Sequence record: PQ416618.1
DNA from: Escherichia phage vB_VIPECOMC06
Reading direction: 5' to 3' (one strand)
DNA: 64,000 nt
Below the pieces are notes generated by a model that did not search any database, was not told the DNA's origin, and saw only the letters and a program-made list of their open reading frames with translations. The translations under genes and the position numbers were made by a program. Below are positions 4,463 to 33,399 of the stretch, one piece after another. Each line of letters opens with the position of its first letter. Position 1 is the first letter of the stretch.

Positions 4463-7174
4463 ATGAAAGAATTTTACTTAACGGTTGAACAGATTGGTGA
4501 TTCAATTTTTGAACGTTACATCGATTCTAATGGCCGTGAACGTACTCGTGAAGTAGAATATAAACCATCACTGTTTGCTCATTGTCCAGAAAGTCAGGCT
4601 ACGAAATATTTCGATATCTACGGTAAGCCGTGTACTCGTAAGTTGTTCGCCAATATGCGTGATGCCTCCCAATGGATTAAACGCATGGAAGATATCGGAC
4701 TTGAAGCACTTGGCATGGACGATTTCAAATTGGCGTATTTGTCTGACACTTATAACTATGAAATCAAATACGACCATACAAAAATTCGTGTGGCTAACTT
4801 CGACATCGAAGTAACATCTCCAGATGGGTTCCCTGAGCCGGCACAAGCAAAACATCCTATTGATGCTATCACCCATTATGACTCAATTGACGACAGGTTC
4901 TACGTATTTGATCTATTGAATTCTCCATATGGTAATGTAGAAGAATGGTCTATCGAAATTGCGGCTAAGCTTCAAGAACAAGGTGGTGATGAAGTTCCAT
5001 CTGAAATTATCGATAAAATCATTTATATGCCGTTCGATAACGAAAAAGAATTGTTGATGGAATATCTCAACTTCTGGCAACAGAAAACTCCTGTCATTTT
5101 GACTGGATGGAACGTTGAGTCATTTGATATTCCATATGTGTATAACCGAATCAAGAATATTTTTGGCGAATCTACTGCGAAACGTTTATCACCACATCGT
5201 AAAACTCGTGTTAAAGTTATCGAAAACATGTATGGTTCTCGTGAAATCATTACATTGTTCGGTATCTCTGTTCTTGATTACATTGACCTTTACAAAAAAT
5301 TCTCTTTTACCAATCAACCGTCATATTCCCTGGATTACATTTCAGAATTTGAATTGAACGTTGGTAAACTGAAATATGACGGCCCTATTTCTAAGCTTCG
5401 TGAAAGCAATCACCAACGATATATTTCTTATAACATTATCGACGTGTATCGTGTATTGCAAATTGATGCTAAGCGTCAGTTCATCAACTTGAGTTTGGAC
5501 ATGGGTTATTATGCTAAAATTCAGATTCAATCTGTGTTTAGCCCAATTAAAACATGGGATGCTATTATTTTTAATAGCCTTAAAGAGCAGAACAAGGTGA
5601 TTCCACAAGGTCGTTCTCATCCGGTTCAACCTTATCCTGGCGCTTTTGTTAAGGAACCTATTCCAAATCGATACAAATATGTAATGAGTTTCGACCTTAC
5701 ATCTCTGTATCCAAGTATTATTCGCCAAGTGAATATTAGCCCAGAAACAATAGCAGGAACGTTTAAAGTAGCTCCATTGCATGATTATATTAACGCTGTT
5801 GCTGAACGTCCTTCTGATGTGTACAGTTGTTCTCCTAACGGCATGATGTATTATAAAGACCGTGACGGTGTTGTTCCAACTGAAATCACTAAGGTCTTTA
5901 ATCAACGTAAAGAACATAAAGGTTACATGCTTGCAGCTCAACGTAATGGTGAAATAATTAAAGAGGCATTGCATAATCCTAATCTTTCTGTTGACGAACC
6001 ATTAGATGTTGATTATCGTTTCGACTTCAGTGATGAGATTAAAGAAAAGATTAAAAAGTTGTCTGCTAAATCTCTTAATGAAATGTTGTTTAGAGCTCAA
6101 CGTACTGAAGTTGCAGGTATGACTGCCCAAATTAACCGTAAATTGCTCATCAACTCGCTTTATGGTGCGCTTGGCAACGTTTGGTTCCGTTATTACGATT
6201 TGCGTAATGCTACTGCAATCACAACATTTGGTCAAATGGCTTTACAGTGGATTGAACGTAAAGTTAATGAATATCTGAATGAAGTTTGTGGCACAGAAGG
6301 TGAAGCTTTCGTTCTTTATGGTGATACAGACTCTATTTACGTATCTGCCGATAAAATTATCGATAAGGTTGGTGAATCTAAATTCCGTGATACCAACCAT
6401 TGGGTAGACTTCTTAGATAAGTTTGCACGTGAACGTATGGAACCAGCTATTGATAGAGGTTTCCGTGAAATGTGTGAATACATGAACAATAAACAACACT
6501 TAATGTTCATGGACCGAGAAGCTATCGCTGGGCCTCCACTCGGTTCTAAAGGTATTGGCGGATTCTGGACCGGTAAGAAACGTTATGCATTAAACGTGTG
6601 GGATATGGAAGGTACTCGTTACGCTGAGCCTAAACTCAAAATCATGGGTCTAGAGACTCAGAAATCTTCGACTCCTAAAGCAGTACAGAAAGCTCTTAAA
6701 GAATGTATTCGTCGTATGCTTCAAGAAGGTGAAGAATCATTACAAGAATATTTTAAAGAGTTTGAAAAAGAATTCCGTCAATTGAATTATATTAGCATCG
6801 CGTCGGTATCTTCTGCGAATAACATTGCTAAATATGATGTAGGTGGATTCCCTGGTCCCAAATGCCCGTTCCATATTCGTGGAATTCTGACGTATAACCG
6901 GGCTATCAAAGGTAATATCGATGCACCGCAAGTTGTAGAAGGTGAAAAAGTATATGTTCTGCCTTTACGTGAAGGAAACCCATTCGGTGATAAATGTATC
7001 GCATGGCCTTCCGGTACTGAAATCACAGATTTAATTAAAGACGACGTACTTCATTGGATGGACTACACTGTTCTCCTTGAGAAGACATTTATTAAACCAC
7101 TTGAAGGATTCACATCAGCAGCGAAACTCGAGTATGAGAAGAAAGCATCTCTGTTCGATATGTTCGATTTTTGA
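4463..7174 (+). CDS. 43: DNA polymerase gp43 (family B)
   Basis: 903 aa; exonuclease motif FDIEV, polymerase motifs YGDTDS and KKRY; N-terminus MKEFYLTVEQIGDS and length match the RB69-type polymerase as I recall it; RBS aaaggaaatt. Confidence 0.95.
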   Translation: MKEFYLTVEQIGDSIFERYIDSNGRERTREVEYKPSLFAHCPESQATKYFDIYGKPCTRKLFANMRDASQWIKRMEDIGLEALGMDDFKLAYLSDTYNYEIKYDHTKIRVANFDIEVTSPDGFPEPAQAKHPIDAITHYDSIDDRFYVFDLLNSPYGNVEEWSIEIAAKLQEQGGDEVPSEIIDKIIYMPFDNEKELLMEYLNFWQQKTPVILTGWNVESFDIPYVYNRIKNIFGESTAKRLSPHRKTRVKVIENMYGSREIITLFGISVLDYIDLYKKFSFTNQPSYSLDYISEFELNVGKLKYDGPISKLRESNHQRYISYNIIDVYRVLQIDAKRQFINLSLDMGYYAKIQIQSVFSPIKTWDAIIFNSLKEQNKVIPQGRSHPVQPYPGAFVKEPIPNRYKYVMSFDLTSLYPSIIRQVNISPETIAGTFKVAPLHDYINAVAERPSDVYSCSPNGMMYYKDRDGVVPTEITKVFNQRKEHKGYMLAAQRNGEIIKEALHNPNLSVDEPLDVDYRFDFSDEIKEKIKKLSAKSLNEMLFRAQRTEVAGMTAQINRKLLINSLYGALGNVWFRYYDLRNATAITTFGQMALQWIERKVNEYLNEVCGTEGEAFVLYGDTDSIYVSADKIIDKVGESKFRDTNHWVDFLDKFARERMEPAIDRGFREMCEYMNNKQHLMFMDREAIAGPPLGSKGIGGFWTGKKRYALNVWDMEGTRYAEPKLKIMGLETQKSSTPKAVQKALKECIRRMLQEGEESLQEYFKEFEKEFRQLNYISIASVSSANNIAKYDVGGFPGPKCPFHIRGILTYNRAIKGNIDAPQVVEGEKVYVLPLREGNPFGDKCIAWPSGTEITDLIKDDVLHWMDYTVLLEKTFIKPLEGFTSAAKLEYEKKASLFDMFDF

Positions 7175-7214
7175 TATAATGTCATGGACGGTAAACTAAT
7201 TAAATGAGAGAAAT

Positions 7215-7850
7215 ATGAAAACTACTCCTATTACTATCGCTATTGACGCAATCATAAAACAAGCTTCTTCTTTGGCCGCTATGGCCAAAGTAATTAGTCA
7301 AAACCCTGCTCGTTATAATGCTATTCTAGAAACTCTTCGACGCCCAGGACTTAGTAATTATGAAAGCCGAGTAATTATTACAGGTGTTGGTAAGAATGCT
7401 AATATTGCAACTAAAGCTTCTGAGACATTTGCTTCACTCGGTATCCCGAGTATGTACTTGAACACAGGGCATTATTCTCATGGTGATGCAGGATTCATTG
7501 CGCCTAATGATGTGTTGATTCATATTAGTCGTTCTGGTAAAACTGAAGAAATGATAGGTGTGGCTAAGCATCTTAAAATGATTCGTCCGAACGTCAAACA
7601 GATTCTGTTGCATTGTAACCCTGACATTCCACAAGAATACGAAGCTCTTTTTGATTATACGTTCTGTACAGGCATCGCAGTAGAGGTTGATGAGAATTCT
7701 CTGGCTCCGACCATGTCCACTACATTGTTGTTAGCGCTTATCGATACGTTTGCTATCAACCTTTCGTCTGAACGTGGATTTACCTCTAATGACTTCCTTA
7801 AGTTCCACCCTGGCGGTGCACTAGGTGCCATGTTACGAGGCGAACAATGA
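7215..7850 (+). CDS. SIS-domain sugar-phosphate isomerase, KdsD/GutQ-like (putative arabinose-5-phosphate isomerase), no CBS domains
   Basis: 211 aa; VIITGVGKNANIATKASETFASLGIPSMY...HGDAG...HISRSGKTEE and C-terminal LAPTMSTT...FLKFHPGGALG resemble the KdsD SIS domain as I recall it. Confidence 0.75.
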   Translation: MKTTPITIAIDAIIKQASSLAAMAKVISQNPARYNAILETLRRPGLSNYESRVIITGVGKNANIATKASETFASLGIPSMYLNTGHYSHGDAGFIAPNDVLIHISRSGKTEEMIGVAKHLKMIRPNVKQILLHCNPDIPQEYEALFDYTFCTGIAVEVDENSLAPTMSTTLLLALIDTFAINLSSERGFTSNDFLKFHPGGALGAMLRGEQ

Positions 7851-7990
7851 AAGCAATAACAATAGGACTTTTACTATTGATGCTTGTCATGACTATCTAC
7901 TGGAGCTTAACGGCTCCAGTATTGATTCCAACACTTGTAATCGGATGGATTATGATTGGACTACAAGCAAAGTATGAATGCTTTAACTAG
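7847..7990 (+). CDS. Small hydrophobic membrane protein (47 aa), absent from the ORF track
   Basis: ATG overlaps the stop of the SIS gene (ATGA); sequence MKAITIGLLLLMLVMTIYWSLTAPVLIPTLVIGWIMIGLQAKYECFN predicts two TM helices. Confidence 0.35.
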   Translation: MKAITIGLLLLMLVMTIYWSLTAPVLIPTLVIGWIMIGLQAKYECFN

Positions 7991-8031
7991 AATAGTGTAC
8001 AATACACCTACTTACCAATGAGGACCACAAC

Positions 8032-9717
8032 ATGAAAAAAGCTGTTATTCTTGGTGCTGGATTGGCAACTCGTTTGTATCCAATAACGCATCATATTCCT
8101 AAGGTGCTTGTTAACTATAAACAAGACACTATTCTGAGCAATTTGTATACAATTTATTCTGACCTTGGCGCAGATGAAATTATTGTAGTAGTTCATTCAA
8201 AATTTGCTGAAACTGTTCGAGCTTATTGTGAGCAAGAAGGGTTCAATGTGACTATTCGTACAGTTGATGAAGCGTATGGTTCTGCTTATGCTCTTGCTAA
8301 ATTACACAAAGATTTAGACGGCCATAATGTAATTGTTAACTGGTGTGATATTATTCCTGATTTCGGTTCATGGTCTTGGAATGTTAACGCAATCTATGTT
8401 AAGGGTGACGAATGTCGATATAATTTCGACGGTGAAAATATCACTAACGTAGGTTCAACAGGTGGTAATGTTGTAGGAATTTATCAGTTCAAAGACTGGG
8501 AATTCTATATGGGTTCTACTGATGAGGAAATTCATGAATACTGCAAAGGACGTGATTTCGTAGAATTCCTTTACGGCAGCGCATTCAATAAATCAGAGCT
8601 TATGAATCTAATTGATTTAGGTGATATGCCTAAACTTGAAAAAGCTCATGAAGTTCGTGAACTTAATCGTAGTTTTAATGCAGTTGAAATTGGTGAAGAA
8701 ACTGTAACTAAATTCGCATTAACCGAACAGGGCCGAGCTCTTCAGAAAGATGAGATTTCATGGTATCTTAAAGTGAAATCAGATTCAGTTCCTCAGTTAG
8801 TTTCTGTTAATGAAAATAACTTTGAAATGGAACGCATTAAAGGTAAGCCGGCATTTGAATATATTAAATCCAAATCAAGTCTTGCTCGTCCACAAATTGT
8901 TGATGCAATTTTAGACGCACTGAAATTCAGCACAGACACTTATTTTGTAAGTCCTGAAACTGTTCGTCGTGATTTCACTAAAGAATTCTATACGAAAGTT
9001 ATTGATCGTTGTGAAAGTATTCAACCATTGATTGATTCATTTGGTAAAATCACACATGTAAACTACACTAAGATTGGGCGTCTGAAGCCAATGTTGAAAC
9101 AAGCTTTAGAACACCTTATTCGTTATCATAACCGTTCTCAGGGACAGTACTCTGTTATTCATGGTGACCCGAACTTCAGTAATACTATGATTACTGATAA
9201 CGGTGAAGTCAAGTTTATCGACCCTCGTGGATATTTTGGCGAAACCAAGATTTACGGGCCAAAATTGTATGATGAAGCTAAAGTGCTTTATGCTGTTTCA
9301 GGTTATGATGAATTCAACGCTAATCCGACCTGGGGGCAGTTTACTATTGATGAAACAACTTGTAATGTGACTATTAACATCAATCCATTAGTTTACAAAT
9401 ATGGAAAGATGAGTTCGTTTAACGAGTATCATCATTTGGCAGTGGCAATTATCTGGATTGCATTAGGTGGTTATTTCAAGAATAATCCACTTAAAGCGGT
9501 AGCCGCATATTATAAAGGTATGGAACTTCTGACTAAGCAATTACGTAACATGGGCCGTGTACTTCAGGACGGCTCTATTAGTTATGACGTAGCAGAACCT
9601 GTAACGGCTACTCTGATTACAAAAAATCCTGGTAAATGGGTACTAACTGATAAAGAAACTGGTGTTTCCTATCGTCCAATCGGTGGCGATATCACTCATC
9701 AATGGGAACGAATCTAA
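8032..9717 (+). CDS. Bifunctional sugar-1-phosphate nucleotidyltransferase (N-terminal) / APH-choline-kinase-fold sugar kinase (C-terminal)
   Basis: 561 aa; N-terminal KAVILGAGLATRLYP (GxGTRL nucleotidyltransferase motif); C-terminal Brenner motif HGDPNFSNTMI and DPRG of the APH/ChoK kinase fold; RBS gagga. Confidence 0.75.
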   Translation: MKKAVILGAGLATRLYPITHHIPKVLVNYKQDTILSNLYTIYSDLGADEIIVVVHSKFAETVRAYCEQEGFNVTIRTVDEAYGSAYALAKLHKDLDGHNVIVNWCDIIPDFGSWSWNVNAIYVKGDECRYNFDGENITNVGSTGGNVVGIYQFKDWEFYMGSTDEEIHEYCKGRDFVEFLYGSAFNKSELMNLIDLGDMPKLEKAHEVRELNRSFNAVEIGEETVTKFALTEQGRALQKDEISWYLKVKSDSVPQLVSVNENNFEMERIKGKPAFEYIKSKSSLARPQIVDAILDALKFSTDTYFVSPETVRRDFTKEFYTKVIDRCESIQPLIDSFGKITHVNYTKIGRLKPMLKQALEHLIRYHNRSQGQYSVIHGDPNFSNTMITDNGEVKFIDPRGYFGETKIYGPKLYDEAKVLYAVSGYDEFNANPTWGQFTIDETTCNVTININPLVYKYGKMSSFNEYHHLAVAIIWIALGGYFKNNPLKAVAAYYKGMELLTKQLRNMGRVLQDGSISYDVAEPVTATLITKNPGKWVLTDKETGVSYRPIGGDITHQWERI

Positions 9718-10103
9718 TGCACCGTGTAAAAAACATGCTTAATCTTTGTTTTGATGTCGATGATTGTATAACAGAGTGGAATAACAATCGTGATTACGTG
9801 AACTTCAAACCAGACGTCGAAATGGTATCTGCCATTAATGCTCTGTATGATGCAGGGCATACCATAACGCTTTACACTGCTCGCGGTATGAAGTCAGTCG
9901 GTCCTGGTCGTATAGCAATCGACATTCTCCCAAGTCTGATTCAGAACTTGGCAAACATTGGCTTGAAGTACCATAATTTGCTAACACATAAACCAGTATA
10001 TGATTGGATTATCGACGACAAAGCTATGCGTCCTGACGAATTCAAAGCTCTTATGAATAAAGGCGAATTCGAAACATTTAAATCATATAAACCGAATCTA
10101 TAA
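9717..10103 (+). CDS. Small HAD-superfamily phosphatase
   Basis: 128 aa from ATG 9717 (TAATG overlap with the upstream stop); HAD motif I FDVDDCIT, motif II LYTAR, motif III-IV K...DWIIDDK. Confidence 0.6.
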   Translation: MHRVKNMLNLCFDVDDCITEWNNNRDYVNFKPDVEMVSAINALYDAGHTITLYTARGMKSVGPGRIAIDILPSLIQNLANIGLKYHNLLTHKPVYDWIIDDKAMRPDEFKALMNKGEFETFKSYKPNL

Positions 10104-10157
10104 TAATTTAAGTAAGACCTGCAAAAACCATCGCAACAATTAACGCGAGATGCAAAA

Positions 10158-11318
10158 ATGAATACCTTTAAAATCGGAACGAATTTTGATTTAGCTCTTC
10201 TTGATAAAATCGTAGAGCTCAATAAAACTTATCCTAATAGCTTGATAAACGAAGTATACGGCTCTACAAGAGAAATGGCTTTTGTAGCAGCCAGACCTGA
10301 TTTTAGGCTTCCTGACGTTGACAAAAAGATGTTAGAAGATTACGTTAAACGTTGTAACGAATTAGGTATTTGCTTTAACTATACACTCAACACGATAAAT
10401 CCTGGTTCAAAAAGAGAACTAGTTGAGTGGAAGAAGAAAGCTATTCAGGATTATGTTCAGTATCTTTGGTCAATAGGCGTATGGCGTATTACTATCGCTA
10501 ACCCTGTTGTTATGGAAATTGTTCGTGAAGTCAATAAAGACATTGAGATTGAAGTTTCAACAATTCTACATGTCGATGCTGTAACTCAAATCAAATACTT
10601 GCATGACCAGTATAATATCAAAAAGGTCTGCTGTGGAATTCATAAGAACCGTTCAGTTTCTTTCCTGAAGCGTGCAGCAGAGTTTTGCAATAAGAACAAT
10701 ATAATATTTGAAGTTCTTGTAAATGAGTTCTGTTCTAATGCTGGTAAAGGGTATACAACACATTGTAGTTATCGTGACTCTTGCTATATTTTCCATAGCA
10801 CCGATGTTACAGTAGATGATGCCAAATCCTTAAATGGATATCCAATGCAACACTGCATTAAAGCTCGTGATACAGACCCATTTAACTGGTTGAGAACTCG
10901 TTTTGTTCGTCCTCAAGATTTGAAACTTTATAATGATATTGGTATCACTCAATTTAAAGTTTCTGGACGTACAGGTAGCACCGACTACATTTTGAAAGTT
11001 CTTGAAGCTTATGCTTCTGAAAAGTTTGAAGGTAATTTGTTAGAACTGTGGAAGCCTTTAGAGACTATTTTCACTCTTGAAAACGAAACTGAGTTTTCAC
11101 ATACGGTAAATATTGAAACCTCTTTGTTAGATGGCTTTTTAGAAAAAAGGTGGTTCAAACATCCAGATTTCGATTGTGCTAATGAAATCTGTGGGACGAC
11201 GTGTACATATTGTGAAAGATATTATAAACGTCAGTTATCTAAAAACGGGTTATCAGAAAATTCTATATCTATTATTGATATAACTAACTCTGATGACGCT
11301 TTGAGGTACCCAGAATGA
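10158..11318 (+). CDS. Cysteine-rich hypothetical protein (386 aa), function unknown
   Basis: ATG 10158; C-terminal Cx4Cx3Cx2C cluster (CANEICGTTCTYC) plus CCG and HCSYRDSC; embedded in the sugar locus. Confidence 0.5.
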   Translation: MNTFKIGTNFDLALLDKIVELNKTYPNSLINEVYGSTREMAFVAARPDFRLPDVDKKMLEDYVKRCNELGICFNYTLNTINPGSKRELVEWKKKAIQDYVQYLWSIGVWRITIANPVVMEIVREVNKDIEIEVSTILHVDAVTQIKYLHDQYNIKKVCCGIHKNRSVSFLKRAAEFCNKNNIIFEVLVNEFCSNAGKGYTTHCSYRDSCYIFHSTDVTVDDAKSLNGYPMQHCIKARDTDPFNWLRTRFVRPQDLKLYNDIGITQFKVSGRTGSTDYILKVLEAYASEKFEGNLLELWKPLETIFTLENETEFSHTVNIETSLLDGFLEKRWFKHPDFDCANEICGTTCTYCERYYKRQLSKNGLSENSISIIDITNSDDALRYPE

Positions 11319-11550
11319 TTTCTAGAAAAACTTTTAACCACCAACTTAATGAAGAGATTTTGACTATTAAAATTAACAGCAACGAACAAATTCTTAAACA
11401 GGCCCATAAGGGCCTGTTTGAAACTAAAGCGGCTAAAGTGATTAAAGAACCTAACTAGAATACTACGCTGATGCATTTCTTCATAGTGTTCTTGGAAGTA
11501 TCGATGCCGAAGCTTTACGTTATATCAACATCGCTAAGAAATTCAAATAA

Positions 11551-11573
11551 GCTTTATGAATTGAGTATATAAT
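11551..11573 (+). promoter_or_regulatory. Candidate MotA-dependent middle promoter for gene 42 (MotA-box-like aGCTTTA, 11-nt spacer, -10 TATAAT)
   Basis: GCTTTA at 11551-11556 and TATAAT at 11568-11573, about 20 nt upstream of the gene 42 ATG. Confidence 0.3.
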
Positions 11574-11591
11574 AACTGTATTGAGGTAAAC

Positions 11592-12308
11592 ATGGGAAAA
11601 CATAACACAATGAAATATATTAAAGCCGCAGATTTTCAATCCGCATTTAAAGCAGTCAATCGTGAAATTTTAGAAAACCCGGAATTCGTAACTGATTCTC
11701 GTATTGGACGTTGTAATGAAATTGGGTCTATGACAGTAGTTGTTGACACTCCATCTTCATTCAAAATGACCGATCCACGTATTAACCGCATCTCTTATGA
11801 ATATGCTGAAGATTTCTGGAAGTTTATGATTTCTGGTGGTACTGATGCAGAAGAAGCATTTAAGGCATATCCTAACGTTGCTAAATTTATTTCTAAACCT
11901 AAATCAGACGCTTTGCCTGCAAACTTCAACACTTTCTATGGTCCACGAATTGCGGCCCAGTTACCAGCTCTTTTAAAAGAACTTAAAGAGAAACCTAACT
12001 CCCGAAGAGTTGTGTTCCAAATTCTTGAAAGTTCAGATCAGGCTTTGCTTGATTCAGACGAAACACTTGAATATCCATGTACTGACTCAGTGACTTATTA
12101 TATTCGTGATGGTAAGCTTTATACCCACTGTCATATGCGTTCACAGAACTGTGCTGTTGTTATGCAGTTGGATTTTTATCTCCAAGGAAAATTACTTCAT
12201 TATATCGCTAAAGAATGTGGTGTAGAAGTTGGTGATTATACTCATACCATGGTAAGTGCCCATGTGTTTGAACGTGATTTTGATTATGTTAAAGGATTCC
12301 TTGACTAA
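11592..12308 (+). CDS. 42: dCMP hydroxymethylase (thymidylate-synthase fold), gp42-like
   Basis: 238 aa; TS-family features (SRR motif, catalytic Cys in EYPCTD); distinct from the canonical td at 59116; position matches T4 gene 42. Confidence 0.7.
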   Translation: MGKHNTMKYIKAADFQSAFKAVNREILENPEFVTDSRIGRCNEIGSMTVVVDTPSSFKMTDPRINRISYEYAEDFWKFMISGGTDAEEAFKAYPNVAKFISKPKSDALPANFNTFYGPRIAAQLPALLKELKEKPNSRRVVFQILESSDQALLDSDETLEYPCTDSVTYYIRDGKLYTHCHMRSQNCAVVMQLDFYLQGKLLHYIAKECGVEVGDYTHTMVSAHVFERDFDYVKGFLD

Positions 12309-13207
12309 TGGCTATTTTCCGCGTACCTATCTTGAGTATGCGGTCTTATGAAACTGGACAGTATGCTATCCTTAAGGATGGCAACTTCCAACTTCATTTG
12401 CACCGTGCTAATCCAGGTGATGTGATTACATATCCACGTAATGCATCTGATATTAAAGAATGCGAACGTCTTTTCCCAGAATTTAAGTTTGTTCCATTAT
12501 GGTATAAAGATAACGCGTATAACACTCGTAAATATTTCTGGTCTGAAAATGAATTTGTGGTTGATTCATTAATTGATTATTATGATTGTGATTTTCTAAT
12601 CACAGATATCACTGGATATGACGGCGCTTTTGATGTGGAATTCAATTTCAATATCACTGCAGACCCTAATAAACCACGTTTTTATATTGACGAATTCTTA
12701 AAAACCGACATGTTGTCTGTTAATCGTTCACTTCAAACTACTGTGTTGAATGAACGTCAAAAAGAAGTGCTGGTTAACGCAGGTGCAGATGGTAATAAGA
12801 TTATCGTAACCCAGAAAGTTATACGTCCTTCCATCATGCAGCGTCTTGTAGGTGATTTGGCTCCTATTCATCTAGATGGTATTTTTCATCCATTTCGAAT
12901 TAGTGACCCATGCTATCGTTTTGAACAAGTGGTTGAATGCGCAATTCAATTAGGCCAACCGCTTTATATAACCGATCCAAATAATAGCTTCGACAGAAAT
13001 AAGTATCCTGAAGAAGCGCTGATTCGAATTTTTAATCCAACTAAAACTGAGTACTATCAAATTCTTAAAGGACGTCCGAAGATTCAATATTTCGAAAATC
13101 CTGAAGAAGTATTCCATCCAGGTCTTGGTGAGTTCATCTACTTTAATGCTTTAATTTCTTCGCCGTATAATATACCTAAATATGAAGATGTCGTAATCGA
13201 GGAATAA
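12308..13207 (+). CDS. Hypothetical protein (299 aa) occupying the T4 beta-gt position
   Basis: TAATG-coupled to gene 42; no motif I can assign. Confidence 0.5.
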   Translation: MAIFRVPILSMRSYETGQYAILKDGNFQLHLHRANPGDVITYPRNASDIKECERLFPEFKFVPLWYKDNAYNTRKYFWSENEFVVDSLIDYYDCDFLITDITGYDGAFDVEFNFNITADPNKPRFYIDEFLKTDMLSVNRSLQTTVLNERQKEVLVNAGADGNKIIVTQKVIRPSIMQRLVGDLAPIHLDGIFHPFRISDPCYRFEQVVECAIQLGQPLYITDPNNSFDRNKYPEEALIRIFNPTKTEYYQILKGRPKIQYFENPEEVFHPGLGEFIYFNALISSPYNIPKYEDVVIEE

Positions 13208-13208
13208 A

Positions 13209-13757
13209 ATGGCTAAAATTATTTTAGTAGATGGCCCGGATAATGCCGGTAAAACAACTTTCATTAATGACATAATGGAAATTAGTGAAAGATATGTAAA
13301 GATTGATTTCCCTAAACGAACAGTTGATGGACGTTTCGATGTTAAGTCTCGAAATGAAGTTGGCTGTTTCGAAACGATGTTGAATTATTTAGACCCTACT
13401 AAGATTTATCTGTTAGACCGTGGATATATTAGTAACTGGGTTTATGGACGTATTCGACAAGATGCGGACTCGGTTCTTGACGTTTATGAACAGGATTATG
13501 TTCGTCTTTGCCAAAACCATGATGTGTTCACAATTATTTTAACACGTAACGAAATGACTGAAAGTTTTGAAGACGACCTTATTACTTTGTCTTCATTCGG
13601 TTTTAATACAGTCATTTCATATTTTGAAGAGTTTGCAATTCATAACAAAATTCAAACGTATCAATTACTTAATCATGATGGTGCTAACAAAGTTATAGGA
13701 TTTAATGCAAGCGAACGTAATAATTTGATTACAGAAATTATCAAATGGGCTCGTTAA
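13209..13757 (+). CDS. P-loop nucleotide/nucleoside-monophosphate kinase-like protein
   Basis: 182 aa; Walker A GPDNAGKTT near the N-terminus; translationally coupled to the upstream ORF. Confidence 0.5.
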   Translation: MAKIILVDGPDNAGKTTFINDIMEISERYVKIDFPKRTVDGRFDVKSRNEVGCFETMLNYLDPTKIYLLDRGYISNWVYGRIRQDADSVLDVYEQDYVRLCQNHDVFTIILTRNEMTESFEDDLITLSSFGFNTVISYFEEFAIHNKIQTYQLLNHDGANKVIGFNASERNNLITEIIKWAR

Positions 13758-13778
13758 GAGCCTGTTTAAAGTTTTAAA

Positions 13779-13803
13779 TGCTGTATAACCGTTAGTATAT
13801 AAT
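13779..13803 (+). promoter_or_regulatory. Candidate MotA-dependent middle promoter for uvsX (TGCTgtA box, 12-nt spacer, -10 TATAAT)
   Basis: MotA-box-like tgctgta at 13779-13785 and TATAAT at 13798-13803 upstream of uvsX; T4 uvsX is middle-transcribed. Confidence 0.3.
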
Positions 13804-13856
13804 CGTCTTATCTTTTAAACATGAGTAAAATATAATGATGCCTATGGAAAAATACA

Positions 13857-15029
13857 ATGTCTGATTTAAAATCTCGTCTGATTAAAGCTTCTACTTCTAA
13901 AATGACTGCAGACTTGACTAAGTCTAAGCTGTTTAATAATCGTGATGAAGTCCCTACTCGTATTCCGATGTTGAATATTGCATTAGGTGGTGCACTGAAT
14001 GCCGGGTTGCAATCAGGCTTAACTATTTTTGCTGCTCCTTCTAAACACTTTAAAACGTTGTTTGGACTGACCATGGTTGCAGCGTATATGAAGAAATATA
14101 AAGATGCAATTTGTTTGTTCTATGATTCAGAATTTGGTGCTTCAGAATCTTATTTTCGTTCAATGGGTGTTGATTTAGACCGTGTAGTTCATACCCCGAT
14201 TCAATCTGTCGAACAACTTAAAGTTGATATGACTAATCAGCTTGACGCGATTGAACGCGGTGATAAAGTTATTATCTTTATCGATTCAATCGGTAATACT
14301 GCATCTAAGAAAGAAACCGAAGATGCGTTGAACGAGAAAGTTGTAGGTGATATGTCTCGTGCTAAGGCACTTAAATCTCTGTTCCGCATTGTGACTCCTT
14401 ATCTGACTATTAAAGATATTCCATGTGTTGCAATCAACCACACAGCAATGGAAATCGGCGGACTATATCCTAAAGAGATTATGGGTGGTGGTACAGGTAT
14501 TCTTTACTCTGCTAACACTGTGTTCTTTATCTCTAAACGTCAGGTTAAAGAAGGTACAGAATTGACTGGTTATGACTTCACACTGAAAGCAGAAAAATCT
14601 CGTACAGTTAAAGAGAAATCTACTTTCCCGATCACGGTTAATTTTGATGGCGGTATTGACCCATTCAGTGGCTTGTTAGAAATGGCAACTGAAATTGGTT
14701 TTGTAGTTAAGCCTAAAGCTGGTTGGTATGCTCGCGAATTCCTTGACGAAGAAACAGGCGAAATGATTCGTGAAGAAAAATCATGGCGTGCTAAAGCTAC
14801 TGATTGTGTAGAATTCTGGGGGCCGTTGTTTAAACATAAGCCTTTCCGTGACGCAATTGAAACTAAATATAAACTAGGTGCTATCTCTTCTATTAAAGAA
14901 GTTGATGATGCTGTTAACGACCTTATTAATTGCAAAGCAACAACTAAAGTTCCGGTTAAAACTTCTGATGCTCCGTCTGCAGCAGATATAGAAAACGACC
15001 TTGACGAAATGGAAGATTTCGATGAATAA
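13857..15029 (+). CDS. uvsX: Recombinase UvsX (RecA-like)
   Basis: 390 aa; RecA core with acidic C-terminal tail; N-terminus MSDLKSRLIKASTSK matches T-even UvsX. Confidence 0.95.
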   Translation: MSDLKSRLIKASTSKMTADLTKSKLFNNRDEVPTRIPMLNIALGGALNAGLQSGLTIFAAPSKHFKTLFGLTMVAAYMKKYKDAICLFYDSEFGASESYFRSMGVDLDRVVHTPIQSVEQLKVDMTNQLDAIERGDKVIIFIDSIGNTASKKETEDALNEKVVGDMSRAKALKSLFRIVTPYLTIKDIPCVAINHTAMEIGGLYPKEIMGGGTGILYSANTVFFISKRQVKEGTELTGYDFTLKAEKSRTVKEKSTFPITVNFDGGIDPFSGLLEMATEIGFVVKPKAGWYAREFLDEETGEMIREEKSWRAKATDCVEFWGPLFKHKPFRDAIETKYKLGAISSIKEVDDAVNDLINCKATTKVPVKTSDAPSAADIENDLDEMEDFDE

Positions 15030-17477: not shown

Positions 17478-17846
17478 ATGAAAAAATTAATCGCTTTAGC
17501 AATGGTATTTGGATTAACCGGATGTGGTGCCCATGGCTTTATCCCTAATAACGTCGGCCAATTGATTTACAATCCGAATGTTAAACAGTATGACCAACCT
17601 AAAGTTGAAGTGGAAGACCCGGTTACTGTAGGTAATCGAATGATTCAAGCTGATGCCCATGCTCAACGTTATCGTGACTCTGATACTGTAGCATTGTCAA
17701 AAGAACAACGCGTTAAAGAACATTGTCTACAGGCTACTGAAATCGCATTCATTCGCTATGTTGAAACAACTGGTAAAGAGCCTACCCAGAAACAAATCGC
17801 AAATAACTACGTCCAGTGTATTGAACGTTTAAACAAATTTAACTAA
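17478..17846 (+). CDS. Putative lipoprotein (122 aa)
   Basis: Signal peptide MKKLIALAMVFGLTGC with lipobox LTGC. Confidence 0.5.
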   Translation: MKKLIALAMVFGLTGCGAHGFIPNNVGQLIYNPNVKQYDQPKVEVEDPVTVGNRMIQADAHAQRYRDSDTVALSKEQRVKEHCLQATEIAFIRYVETTGKEPTQKQIANNYVQCIERLNKFN

Positions 17847-17907: not shown

Positions 17908-18156
17908 ATGGAATTATTCGTAGCTAGTTCAGTAGCTGTTTTAATCGCAGGTATTGGTTCAATCATCATTTACATGTTGCCTTGGGTAATCGCACTTATT
18001 CGTGGCACAAAAAGCACAACAGCAATCTTTTTTGTATCTTTACTCTTTAACTGGACGATGATTGGTTGGATTGGAACTTTAATTTGGTCTATCGTTGCCG
18101 AAAAGAAATCTGCTCAGCAGCCTCAACAAGTAATTATTATTCGCGAAAAAGAATAA
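17908..18156 (+). CDS. Small inner-membrane protein (82 aa)
   Basis: Two predicted TM helices (VAVLIAGIGSIIIYMLPWVIALI; AIFFVSLLFNWTMIGWIGTLIWSIV); RBS agagga. Confidence 0.5.
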   Translation: MELFVASSVAVLIAGIGSIIIYMLPWVIALIRGTKSTTAIFFVSLLFNWTMIGWIGTLIWSIVAEKKSAQQPQQVIIIREKE

Positions 18157-21196: not shown

Positions 21197-21718
21197 ATGG
21201 CGCACTTTAACGAATGTTCACAACTTATTTCTGGTGTTGATAAAGCAGAAGAAGCTTATTTTAATGCTCTGATTCACGAAGATAAAGACCCACTGCAGGT
21301 AATGCTTGATATGCAGAAATCTTTACAAGTTCGTCTGGCAAATGACAAGCCTGAACATAACAAACATCCTGATGAATTGGCCACTGCTGGTGATGTTGTT
21401 GATTGGCTGCGTAATCAGAAAGATTATATTGATGATGAATTCCGTGAACTGTTGACTTCACTTGGCGGTATGAGCAATGGTGAAAAAGCCGCTAGCTCTG
21501 TATGGAAACCGTGGAAGGCACAACATGCTGAATATCGAAATCGTCGTATCGATGAACTGTCTCCTGAAGACCAGCTTGAAATTAAATTCGAGATGATTGA
21601 TATCCTCCACTTTGTCCTGAACATGTTCCAAGGTCTGGGTCTTTCTGCTGAAGAAATCTTTAAACTGTATTACTTGAAAAACCAACACAACTTTGAACGT
21701 CAGGATAATGGTTACTAA
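21197..21718 (+). CDS. 56: dCTP pyrophosphatase gp56-like (MazG-like all-alpha NTP-PPase)
   Basis: 173 aa from ATG 21197 (track start 21182 is an upstream TTG); acidic EExxE-type motifs DDEFRELL and EMIDILHF; adjacent to soc and 61. Confidence 0.6.
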   Translation: MAHFNECSQLISGVDKAEEAYFNALIHEDKDPLQVMLDMQKSLQVRLANDKPEHNKHPDELATAGDVVDWLRNQKDYIDDEFRELLTSLGGMSNGEKAASSVWKPWKAQHAEYRNRRIDELSPEDQLEIKFEMIDILHFVLNMFQGLGLSAEEIFKLYYLKNQHNFERQDNGY

Positions 21719-32298: not shown

Positions 32299-33399
32299 AT
32301 GAAAGTTATGTTTATCCCATCTCGTGCAGTCCCATTTAATCCTGACCGTGTACAAGGTGGTCTTGAAGCAGTACATTTAAATGTGTTGAAATATCTTGTG
32401 TCCATCGGTGCTGATATTGATTATATCGGCTTTGATAATGACACGTTTGGTGACTGGAAAGTTACACACCATCCTGTTGGTCATCTGACTAAATTTAGCC
32501 TAGGTATGAGTTATACTATGGCTCGTAAGATTGTTGAACTAGCCGGCATTCATGAATACGATTTTGTTGTTACTATGGAACCGACTAAACTAACCGTTCA
32601 GGCAATTAAAGACGCAGGTCTCTCTAAAGTTCATAAGAATTTTATGGCAACACCATTTGAACCGGTATCTCGTGGCATTGTTCAAATTTGGGACCAGACT
32701 ATTCAAATTCATAAGAATGGCGGCAAGAGTTATGCTCCTACTAAAGCCTTCCGTGAATTTGAACGTAAATATTGTTATATGACTTCAGGTCTGACTGACA
32801 AAATTGATTATGATTATTGGCGAGCAAATCCGTTGTTTGAAGCCGAAGATTATCCGGTTATTTGTTTGAATGAGAAACCTGAAGTTCTTCCGGCGACTGA
32901 TCTGATTATTAGTGCACAACGTTATGACACTAAAATGCGTCGTACTGATGTTGCTCTTGAAGCGATTAAAGCACTAGGCGAAAATGGTGTAGGATACTGT
33001 CCTAGTAAATGGGCACCACCAGCTAAATATCCTGTTATTATTGATGCTCCACACAGTGAAATCATGGAACGTCTTAAAACAGCTAAAGCGCTTATTAATA
33101 CATGTCCTGACACAGGTACGGTAGAGAATAGTTCTATTGAAGCCATCTCTAAAGGTGTCCCTGTAATCCAGTTAGTTTTTAAGGATTATCCTCATGCGAC
33201 ATTCGAATACGACCCAGATACTGTGCGTGTAGAAATTGATTCCTCTACTCCTAAGAAAGAAGTAGTTGCGCTTTACACAAAAGCTGTATTAGAATTCACT
33301 GACACATACGAAGCTCGAGTTAAACGTGCTGAAGCAGTATGGAAGAAGTATAACCGAGATGCAGTTGTTGCGATGTGGGATAAAATCTTCACAGCGTAA
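32299..33399 (+). CDS. GT-B fold glycosyltransferase (GT4-like); candidate DNA hydroxymethylcytosine glycosyl/arabinosyltransferase
   Basis: 366 aa; C-terminal GT4-like E-x7-E motif with G-x-P-V-I (VENSSIEAISKGVPVIQ); N-terminal MKVMFIP...GG.E typical of a GT-B N-domain; not recognisably T4 alpha-gt or beta-gt. Confidence 0.65.
   Translation: MKVMFIPSRAVPFNPDRVQGGLEAVHLNVLKYLVSIGADIDYIGFDNDTFGDWKVTHHPVGHLTKFSLGMSYTMARKIVELAGIHEYDFVVTMEPTKLTVQAIKDAGLSKVHKNFMATPFEPVSRGIVQIWDQTIQIHKNGGKSYAPTKAFREFERKYCYMTSGLTDKIDYDYWRANPLFEAEDYPVICLNEKPEVLPATDLIISAQRYDTKMRRTDVALEAIKALGENGVGYCPSKWAPPAKYPVIIDAPHSEIMERLKTAKALINTCPDTGTVENSSIEAISKGVPVIQLVFKDYPHATFEYDPDTVRVEIDSSTPKKEVVALYTKAVLEFTDTYEARVKRAEAVWKKYNRDAVVAMWDKIFTA

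Follow-up and report, generated by a model that had tools for sequence, protein, structure and literature searches.

We analysed a 64,000-nucleotide stretch of the genome of Escherichia phage vB_VIPECOMC06 (PQ416618.1; hereafter, the window), and in particular positions 7,215 to 13,757, where a set of sugar- and nucleotide-metabolism genes lies between DNA polymerase (gene 43) and uvsX. The source phage is a T4-like Mosigvirus and the window is 98% identical to phage RB69; the ~7-kb cassette DNA shows 98.4% identity to phage F2 and 97.8% to RB69, and the cassette proteins individually match those of phage HY126 at 97-100% identity. The region is very probably the cassette with which an RB69-like Mosigvirus hypermodifies its DNA with arabinosyl-5-hydroxycytosine (ara-5hoC), and nothing contradicting this identity turned up in the present analysis. 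The system itself is already known, since an eight-gene module was flagged in 2018 as the likely source of UDP-arabinose (Thomas et al., 2018; PMC6024577) and was characterised in 2025–2026. Ara-5hoC has been documented in virion DNA of RB69, NP, HY126, and Bas46 (PMC13326640; PMC13390438), and the ~98% DNA identity suggests that it would also stand in place of cytosine in virion DNA of the source phage. The genes of the cassette are as follows.

7215..7850, + strand: SIS-only D-arabinose-5-phosphate isomerase (predicted), ortholog of RB69 gp55; 211 amino acids (aa); Pfam SIS 1.7e-10; PHROG 5670 'arabinose 5-phosphate isomerase' 2e-116.
7847..7990, + strand: intact 47-aa open reading frame (ORF), ATGA-coupled to the isomerase gene; phrog_3610 (unknown function) 9.5e-26; annotated in HY126 and Bas46.
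8032..9717, + strand: bifunctional kinase/uridylyltransferase, ortholog of HY126 AfhE and RB69 gp52:53; a single 561-codon ORF, as in the corrected RB69 sequence.
9717..10103, + strand: HAD-type phosphatase, ortholog of HY126 AfhF and RB69 gp51; TIGR01689 EcbF/BcbF capsule phosphatase 4e-13; PHROG 1238 1e-42.
10158..11318, + strand: peptidase-U32-family iron-sulfur (Fe-S) protein, RB69 gp50; 386 aa; Pfam Peptidase_U32 6e-11, 42.4 bits against a gathering cut-off of 22.4.
11315..11547, + strand: ORF049c remnant; its 79-codon ORF is frameshifted, giving a 47-codon ORF at 11315-11458 with the remainder in another frame.
11592..12308, + strand: flavin/O2-dependent 5-hydroxy-dCMP synthase of the thymidylate synthase (TS) superfamily, RB69 gp48 type; not a dCMP hydroxymethylase.
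12308..13207, + strand: GT-B glycosyltransferase (GT), putative first (base-proximal) arabinosyltransferase, ortholog of RB69 gp46:47; 299 aa; AlphaFold2 (AF2) model with a predicted local distance difference test score (pLDDT) of 94.5.
13209..13757, + strand: thymidylate-kinase-like (TMK-like) P-loop nucleotide kinase, RB69 gp45; PHROG 761 'thymidylate kinase' 5e-45; weak match to TIGR00041.

An earlier note on this DNA had singled out six of these ORFs (isomerase, fused nucleotidyltransferase-kinase [NT-kinase], HAD phosphatase, U32 protein, GT, and P-loop kinase) around a supposed gene 42. All six run uninterrupted on the + strand with the coordinates listed, while the 47-aa ORF at 7847-7990, for which we found no discussion in the literature, and the frameshifted 79-codon ORF at 11315-11547 had been overlooked. 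The translational coupling it had described is also present: ATGA overlaps join the isomerase gene to the 47-aa ORF and the U32 gene to the ORF that follows, TAATG overlaps join NT-kinase to HAD and TS to GT, and a 1-nt gap separates GT from the kinase. A scan of 7000-14000 for promoters and terminators showed no enrichment relative to shuffled sequences. The segment just upstream of the hydroxylase gene (11545-11591), AAGCTTTATGAATTGAGTATATAAT, resembles a T4 middle promoter, with a MotA-box-like GCTT ~12 nt before TATAAT.

The contrast with T4 drawn in the same note holds for gene content. The T4 gene 43-uvsX interval contains imm.1, imm, 42, beta-gt, and segA, and only the TS homolog of the cassette finds a match there; the SIS, NT-kinase, HAD, U32, GT, and kinase genes have none. 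The cassette has not replaced imm, however, as had been supposed. Instead, imm has been relocated within the window, together with imm.1, to a site downstream of gene 41, whereas in T4 it lies beside gene 43.

17478-17846: imm.1, downstream of gene 41.
17908-18156: imm, downstream of gene 41; Pfam Imm_superinfect 1.5e-15.

The identity of the modified base turns on the TS homolog, which had been read as a retained gene 42, with 5-hydroxymethylcytosine (hmC) as the acceptor of the sugar and an earlier report of arabinosyl-hmC in RB69 as support. That report was a good lead to arabinosylation, but it misidentified the base. Arabinosyl-hmC was reported for RB69 by Thomas et al. (2018; PMC6024577), an assignment since termed erroneous, with 5-hydroxycytosine (5hoC) confirmed independently (PMC13390438). 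Nuclear magnetic resonance (NMR) and mass spectrometry (MS) showed RB69 DNA to contain Araf-Araf-5-hydroxy-dC, in which arabinose is ether-linked directly to the C5 hydroxyl with no methylene between them (Lee et al., 2026; PMC13326640). Furthermore, RB69 gp48 makes 5-hydroxy-dCMP with oxygen derived from 18O2 and an FMN-like flavin on the enzyme, and gp48 together with gp159 introduces 5-hydroxydeoxycytidine (5hodC) into E. coli DNA (PMC13326640). The acceptor in RB69 and Mosigvirus DNA is therefore 5hoC and not hmC (PMC13326640; PMC13390438).

The window enzyme agrees with this chemistry. It differs at two residues from RB69 gp48 and at three from the protein in PDB 9iqc, which is exactly the HY126 enzyme. 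At the ThyA positions (E. coli numbering) it has N169, D177, E143, and A80, as against D169 and W80 in T4 gp42, and N169 is the published predictor of hydroxylase activity. The N169/D177/E143 signature, together with A80, is common to all 11 cassette-type homologs aligned, i.e., the window enzyme and 10 others from phages whose hosts include Acinetobacter, Pseudomonas, Shewanella, Serratia, Yersinia, Proteus, and Klebsiella, with E. coli Dhakavirus Bp7 also among them. Identity to T4 gp42 is 24.8%, compared with 62% for the neighbouring polymerase, 68% for UvsX, and 86% for gp41. The D169, the W80, and the orthologous level of identity that mark a gp42-type enzyme are thus all missing, and gene 42 has not been kept. 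An alternative pathway, in which arabinose passes through the free sugar (phosphatase first, then an anomeric kinase) onto hmC made by a conserved gene 42, would accord with the 2018 report, with the dCMP-specifying N177D that the window enzyme shares with T4 gp42, and with the phosphatase-first wording in Table 1 of PMC13326640. We consider it extremely unlikely, given the ether linkage without a methylene, the 18O2-derived oxygen in the gp48 product, the D169N substitution, lack of W80, and 25% identity to gp42 in the window enzyme, and the kinase-then-phosphatase order adopted in the text of PMC13326640 following He et al. (2026), as relayed there; for RB69, the published structure determination has already refuted it. 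On the combined literature, residue, and identity evidence, we rejected both an hmC acceptor and the idea that the TS homolog is an ortholog of T4 gene 42.

A further component of the base arm, the dCTPase, lies outside the cassette.

21197..21718, + strand: gp56 dCTPase, 97% identical to RB69 gp56; Pfam dUTPase_2 1e-6.

The 5hoC chemistry and the hydroxylase were demonstrated in RB69, HY126, or DLP3, and at 97-100% identity they probably carry over to the window. On that footing, gp56 would supply dCMP and deplete dCTP, such that only the modified nucleotide is incorporated; the TS-like enzyme, with flavin and O2, would convert dCMP to 5-hydroxy-dCMP; and kinases would raise this to the triphosphate, which the polymerase would insert in place of C. 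The arrangement has much in common with hmC glucosylation in T4 (gp42, gp56, and the alpha- and beta-glucosyltransferases), including the gene 43-uvsX neighbourhood and the underlying logic, in that a TS-superfamily enzyme modifies dCMP, a dCTPase keeps dCTP out, and the hydroxyl so created is decorated by GT-B enzymes. It differs in relying on flavin/O2 hydroxylation rather than folate-dependent hydroxymethylation, and on phage-made UDP-arabinofuranose rather than host UDP-glucose.

The claim that the phage encodes its own route from ribulose-5-phosphate to NDP-arabinose, followed by transfer onto a modified cytosine in DNA, is supported, and profile searches bore out the earlier calls for the isomerase, the fused nucleotidyltransferase/kinase, the HAD phosphatase, and the P-loop kinase. 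The isomerase, which is 100% identical to the HY126 protein and whose function was assigned by homology in PMC13326640, matches TIGR00393 KpsF/GutQ at 2e-32 (profile positions 2-153 of 268) and KdsD at 1e-30 (the match ending at 202 of 328). Because it lacks the CBS half, it scores only 107 and 80 bits, under the curated equivalog cut-offs of 505 and 481. Indeed, its SIS catalytic domain is homologous to that of KdsD/GutQ, and KpsF/GutQ and KdsD are its best NCBIfam matches, but those enzymes are ~320-330 aa long, whereas the window isomerase, at 211 aa, consists of the SIS half only, without the tandem CBS domains. No SIS isomerase gene is annotated between polymerase and NT-kinase in Klebsiella phage Marfa (locus L021, 5909-9991), which suggests that this phage relies on host KdsD/GutQ for arabinose-5-phosphate.

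The fused enzyme is 97% identical to HY126 AfhE. An NTP_transferase domain occupies its N-terminus (residues 3-99, 8.5e-10; Pfam), with a match to LicC (1jyk) at 2e-5 and a weak match to MurU, and its C-terminus shows sub-threshold matches to APH-type kinases (Fructosamin_kin, EcKL, RIO1) over residues 344-409. Distant homologs of the fused enzyme (26-28% identity) occur in jumbo Vibrio phages, Synechococcus phage S-SRM01, and a Chryseobacterium phage, which hints at related sugar-nucleotide pathways beyond T4-like phages. The HAD phosphatase, whose start codon overlaps the upstream gene (TAATG), is 99.2% identical to its HY126 counterpart and 89% identical to that of phage Entb_45.

The order of these steps is the reverse of what had been supposed, i.e., phosphatase first with free arabinose as an intermediate. 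As PMC13326640 relates from work on phage HY126 (He et al., 2026), the AfhE kinase converts arabinose-5-phosphate to the 1,5-bisphosphate, AfhF removes the 5-phosphate to leave arabinose-1-phosphate, and the AfhE nucleotidyltransferase forms UDP-arabinofuranose, so that in this account no free arabinose arises; Table 1 of PMC13326640 still words the pathway phosphatase-first, while its text adopts kinase-then-phosphatase after He et al. The roles of AfhE and AfhF were shown experimentally in relatives and, at 97-100% identity, are likely to apply in the window. There, the SIS isomerase is predicted from fold or homology to convert host ribulose-5-phosphate to D-arabinose-5-phosphate, the kinase half of the fused enzyme would add the 1-phosphate to yield arabinose-1,5-bisphosphate, the HAD phosphatase would remove the 5-phosphate, and the nucleotidyltransferase half would turn the resulting arabinose-1-phosphate into UDP-arabinofuranose. 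The AmgK/MurU and LicA/LicC salvage pairs likewise combine an APH-fold kinase with a small sugar-1-phosphate nucleotidyltransferase, but in the window the pair is fused and the kinase substrate is a sugar 5-phosphate, giving a 1,5-bisphosphate that needs a dedicated HAD phosphatase. In this respect the kinase-then-phosphatase step resembles the GmhB step of heptose activation.

For the transfer of arabinose, two glycosyltransferases are candidates, the second of which lies between gene 39 and rIIA.

32299..33399, + strand: second arabinosyltransferase (proposed), ortholog of RB69 ORF003c/gp3; 99.2% identical to RB69 ORF003c; phrog_8302.

The 299-aa ORF of the cassette has no Pfam match. Nevertheless, it models with high confidence as a GT-B fold glycosyltransferase; the best Foldseek matches are MshA (3c4q, a retaining UDP-sugar transferase), 5ze7 (BH4 glucosyltransferase), and 6kih (sucrose-phosphate synthase). 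A tblastn search of the T4 interval that includes beta-gt gave no match at E <= 1e-3, and only the general GT-B fold is held in common. Members of this GT family were found in every cassette variant examined, as were counterparts of the TMK-like kinase; the fold of gp45 is also reported to match TMK (PMC13326640, Table 1). From fold or homology, the GT-B enzyme at 12308-13207 would add the first arabinose onto the C5 hydroxyl and the ORF003c homolog at 32299-33399 the second, as proposed for ORF003c in PMC6024577 and PMC13326640; the order and substrates of both transferases, like the role of the TMK-like kinase, are predictions of this kind. Single GTs were inactive on 5hoC DNA (PMC13326640), which counts against the first of these assignments.

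That result also bears on when the first arabinose is added. It could be added before replication, with the GT-B enzyme acting on 5-hydroxy-dCMP, the TMK-like kinase phosphorylating a bulky product that a gp1-type deoxynucleoside monophosphate (dNMP) kinase refuses, and the polymerase inserting arabinosyl-5ho-dCTP. Such a scheme would give a purpose to a TMK-like kinase that is otherwise redundant with gp159, and the TS, GT, and kinase genes are contiguous and coupled in the window and occur together in every variant examined, although the kinase lies elsewhere in Bp7, Marfa, and phiP4-3. Moreover, the data of PMC13326640 do not separate nucleotide-level from DNA-level first glycosylation. However, all known T-even glycosylations are post-replicative, and later arabinoses are added on DNA (PMC13326640). 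Considering both sides, we regard pre-replicative addition as rather unlikely; the question may already be settled in He et al. (2026).

Taken as a whole, the cassette has the same gene order and content as the ara-5hoC pathway of RB69, HY126, and Bas46 (the Afh enzymes; RB69 gp45-gp55, gp3, and gp28), with which it has in common the hydroxylase signature, a fused AfhE-type enzyme, an AfhF-type HAD phosphatase, two GT-B transferases, and a dCTPase. The differences are at strain level only, e.g., the frameshift in ORF049c caused by a 4-nt deletion in the window; the genes corresponding to RB69 46:47 and 52:53 are each single ORFs, as in the corrected RB69 sequence. The cassette accounts for the way in which RB69-like phages escape CRISPR and restriction enzymes, and for the inability of RB69 to exchange DNA with T4. 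Confirmation in the source phage adds only one more member to a published system, and the remaining value of the locus lies in the U32 gene, which is conserved to the same degree as UvsX although no role for it is generally agreed.

The product of this gene had been described as a Cys-rich protein of no known kind, whereas it belongs to the peptidase U32 family (Pfam, 6e-11). A sequence search against the PDB gave no match, but its AF2 model (pLDDT 91.7) has a U32 protein (5d88) as best structural match in that database. Between Mosigvirus and Kanagawavirus the protein is 87% identical, level with UvsX and above the polymerase. Among 40 members of the subfamily, 10 cysteines (C158, C177, C192, C203, C209, C233, C340, C345, C349, and C352) and E190 are invariant, the C-terminal cluster having the form Cx4Cx3Cx2C. 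Characterised U32 proteins (RlhA, TrhP, and UbiU/V) are Fe-S proteins of O2-independent hydroxylation that need prephenate, which for UbiU/V is the O donor, and RlhA is the 5-hydroxycytidine synthase of E. coli. We tentatively propose, with somewhat less than even confidence, that the phage protein is a prephenate-dependent, O2-independent pyrimidine-C5 hydroxylase, which in many related genera would be partnered by a phage chorismate mutase. Homology and genomic context are what suggest that it may have this role.

In an hhalign comparison of the subfamily with the E. coli U32 paralogs, one of four alignments was usable, that to RlhA (81% probability, E 1.2e-5, 203 columns, RlhA residues 46-258). 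In it, RlhA residues E161, C169, and C176, which are essential in that enzyme (PMC5727448), align to E190, C203, and C209 of the phage protein. The phage protein thus has in common with RlhA, TrhP, and UbiU-UbiV the U32 domain, the essential Glu and two Cys of RlhA, and extra conserved C-terminal cysteines, and the RlhA product, 5-hydroxycytosine, represents the same base chemistry as that of the phage cassette. In addition, it is accompanied by an O2-dependent enzyme that makes the same product, as TrhP is by TrhO (5-hydroxyuridine, ho5U) and UbiUV by UbiIHF (ubiquinone) in E. coli, and in relatives its gene is linked to that of a prephenate-producing enzyme. On the other hand, it is shorter (386 aa) and single-subunit, with different Cys spacing and the Cx4Cx3Cx2C tail; it resembles the E. 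coli proteins only weakly, is encoded by a phage, and is predicted to act on a deoxynucleotide. Since both characterised pyrimidine-directed U32 proteins, RlhA and TrhP, act on RNA polymers, and since RlhA is the closest E. coli relative, a prephenate-dependent hydroxylase acting on a polynucleotide (host or phage RNA, or residual cytosines in replicated DNA) rather than on dCMP must also be weighed. We consider this unlikely, as the phage protein has no equivalent of the long C-terminal extension found in RlhA (653 aa), the alignment spanning only RlhA 46-258, and its gene is linked to that of a dCMP hydroxylase and, in distant relatives, to those of dNMP enzymes.

The argument for prephenate comes from the neighbour of the U32 gene in other phages. 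In Entb_45, a 79-aa chorismate mutase is encoded between U32 and the TS homolog with a 4-nt overlap on each side, and at least six phage lineages other than that of the window pair a chorismate mutase with U32. Homologs of it occur in 56 phage records, always adjoining U32 and/or the TS homolog, and the pair with its 4-nt overlap and an intact catalytic set is found in Kanagawa-, Winkler-, Teguna-, and Bragavirus, among others. Six diverse phage chorismate mutases exceed the Pfam CM_2 threshold and keep the residues that correspond to the catalytic set R11, R28, K39, E52, S84, and Q88 of E. coli chorismate mutase. In Shewanella phage Thanatos-1 (locus L016, 423-6240), the gene order is rearranged to NT-kinase, HAD-like, TS, GT, and kinase, followed by U32 and chorismate mutase, the last two having been relocated together with their 4-nt overlap retained. 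Because this partner makes prephenate, the cofactor or O donor of U32 hydroxylases, a prephenate-dependent hydroxylase is suggested.

In the window, the slot taken by a true chorismate mutase in other genera is occupied by ORF049c, which carries a 4-nt deletion relative to Bas46 and RB69 (both intact, 79 aa) and which in HY126 is broken by different, single-base insertions; it appears to be decaying, or error-prone, in some Mosigviruses. We considered whether ORF049c might be a diverged chorismate mutase and rejected the idea, as no Pfam match was obtained with the window ORF, the repaired ORF, or RB69 ORF049c, and hhalign to the phage chorismate mutase profile gave a probability of 0.2%. Klebsiella phage Marfa also has U32 and no chorismate mutase.

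The distribution of the U32 gene was compared across cassette variants. In Acinetobacter phage Acj61 and Pseudomonas phage PspYZU05, the cassette is present but HAD runs directly into TS, with U32 and chorismate mutase both missing. Phages of Acinetobacter make up 57 of 368 NT-kinase records and none of the 221 U32 records. A strict rule, by which phages of facultative anaerobes would carry U32 and those of aerobes would lack it, fits Acinetobacter and PspYZU05; however, it is broken by Bp7, and we retain it as weak support only. The Bp7 cassette (locus L020, 5971-10151) comprises NT-kinase, HAD, TMK-like kinase, TS (with N169), and GT without U32 or chorismate mutase, and imm lies beside the polymerase. 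With the same host species, it provides a natural 'U32-minus' comparator.

These absences also help to judge whether the U32 protein works in the sugar arm, or in a redox side-reaction, instead of hydroxylating the base. Such a role is implied by its description as a 'sugar or heterocycle reductase' (PMC13326640, Table 1) and as an 'enzyme involved in UDP-arabinose biosynthesis' (BASEL record, Bas46); its gene does lie between those of the sugar and base arms, and its TIM-barrel fold resembles that of sugar-active enzymes. Beyond a generic TIM barrel, however, it has no homology to sugar-nucleotide enzymes; the published three-enzyme route to UDP-arabinofuranose is complete without it, and Acj61, PspYZU05, and Bp7 carry the whole sugar arm without U32. 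The conserved partner makes prephenate, for which there is no known role in pentose activation, and distant relatives are found among genes of dNMP metabolism and not among sugar genes. Together these observations make a sugar-arm role improbable.

The distant relatives in question are ~250 metagenomic proteins with 48-58% identity, encoded in large phage-like contigs beside genes for dCMP deaminase, thymidylate kinase, NT5C, and deoxynucleoside kinase (dNK). The association with genes for dNMP kinases and dCMP deaminase suggests that viruses encode a broader, so far unrecognised class of anaerobic nucleotide hydroxylases. Relatives with 50-58% identity lie at L005 7001-8086, L008 7001-8083, and L006 7001-8098, on contigs of up to 466 kb with a DnaE-type polymerase, where uracil-DNA glycosylase (UDG) is a further neighbour, and L006 also has a second U32-like gene, a radical SAM enzyme, and a nucleoside 2-deoxyribosyltransferase; these contigs may encode a different, uncharacterised nucleotide modification pathway. 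An ORF of ~250 aa follows the distant U32 genes (L008 8080-8826, with a 4-nt overlap with U32; L005 8175-8939) and shows only sub-threshold matches to NAD-dependent epimerases/dehydratases.

Several points weigh against a hydroxylase role for the U32 protein. The RlhA alignment reaches only 81% probability, and those to UbiU, UbiV, and TrhP are poor. The absences from phages of aerobes (Acinetobacter and Pseudomonas) represent few independent lineages, and E. coli Dhakavirus Bp7 lacks U32 while carrying both the cassette and the hydroxylase signature; therefore, U32 is dispensable at least aerobically and is an accessory gene, and the host-oxygen pattern is not strict. No recognisable chorismate mutase is encoded in the window or in any Mosigvirus, and these phages would therefore depend on host prephenate. 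Finally, PMC13326640, in which the terms U32 and RlhA are absent, lists gp50 only as a 'sugar or heterocycle reductase', without discussion. He et al. (2026) and Mahler et al. (2025) aside, we found no hydroxylase role for RB69 gp50 in the literature; the idea may already have been tested in one of those two studies.

If the U32 protein is a hydroxylase, it would yield 5-hydroxy-dC nucleotides when the O2/flavin-dependent TS-like enzyme cannot work, as in an anoxic host. This would resolve an apparent paradox, in that the published hydroxylase needs O2, yet these phages replace all of their cytosine and infect gut bacteria that are often anoxic. The protein would also be the first U32 hydroxylase with a small soluble substrate and could make it possible to reconstitute prephenate-dependent hydroxylation in vitro, a goal not yet reached with RlhA, TrhP, or UbiU/V. 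Gut-associated phages of this type would then possess dual aerobic and anaerobic routes to one modified base, a property that would be relevant to the choice of therapeutic phages for the anoxic gut.

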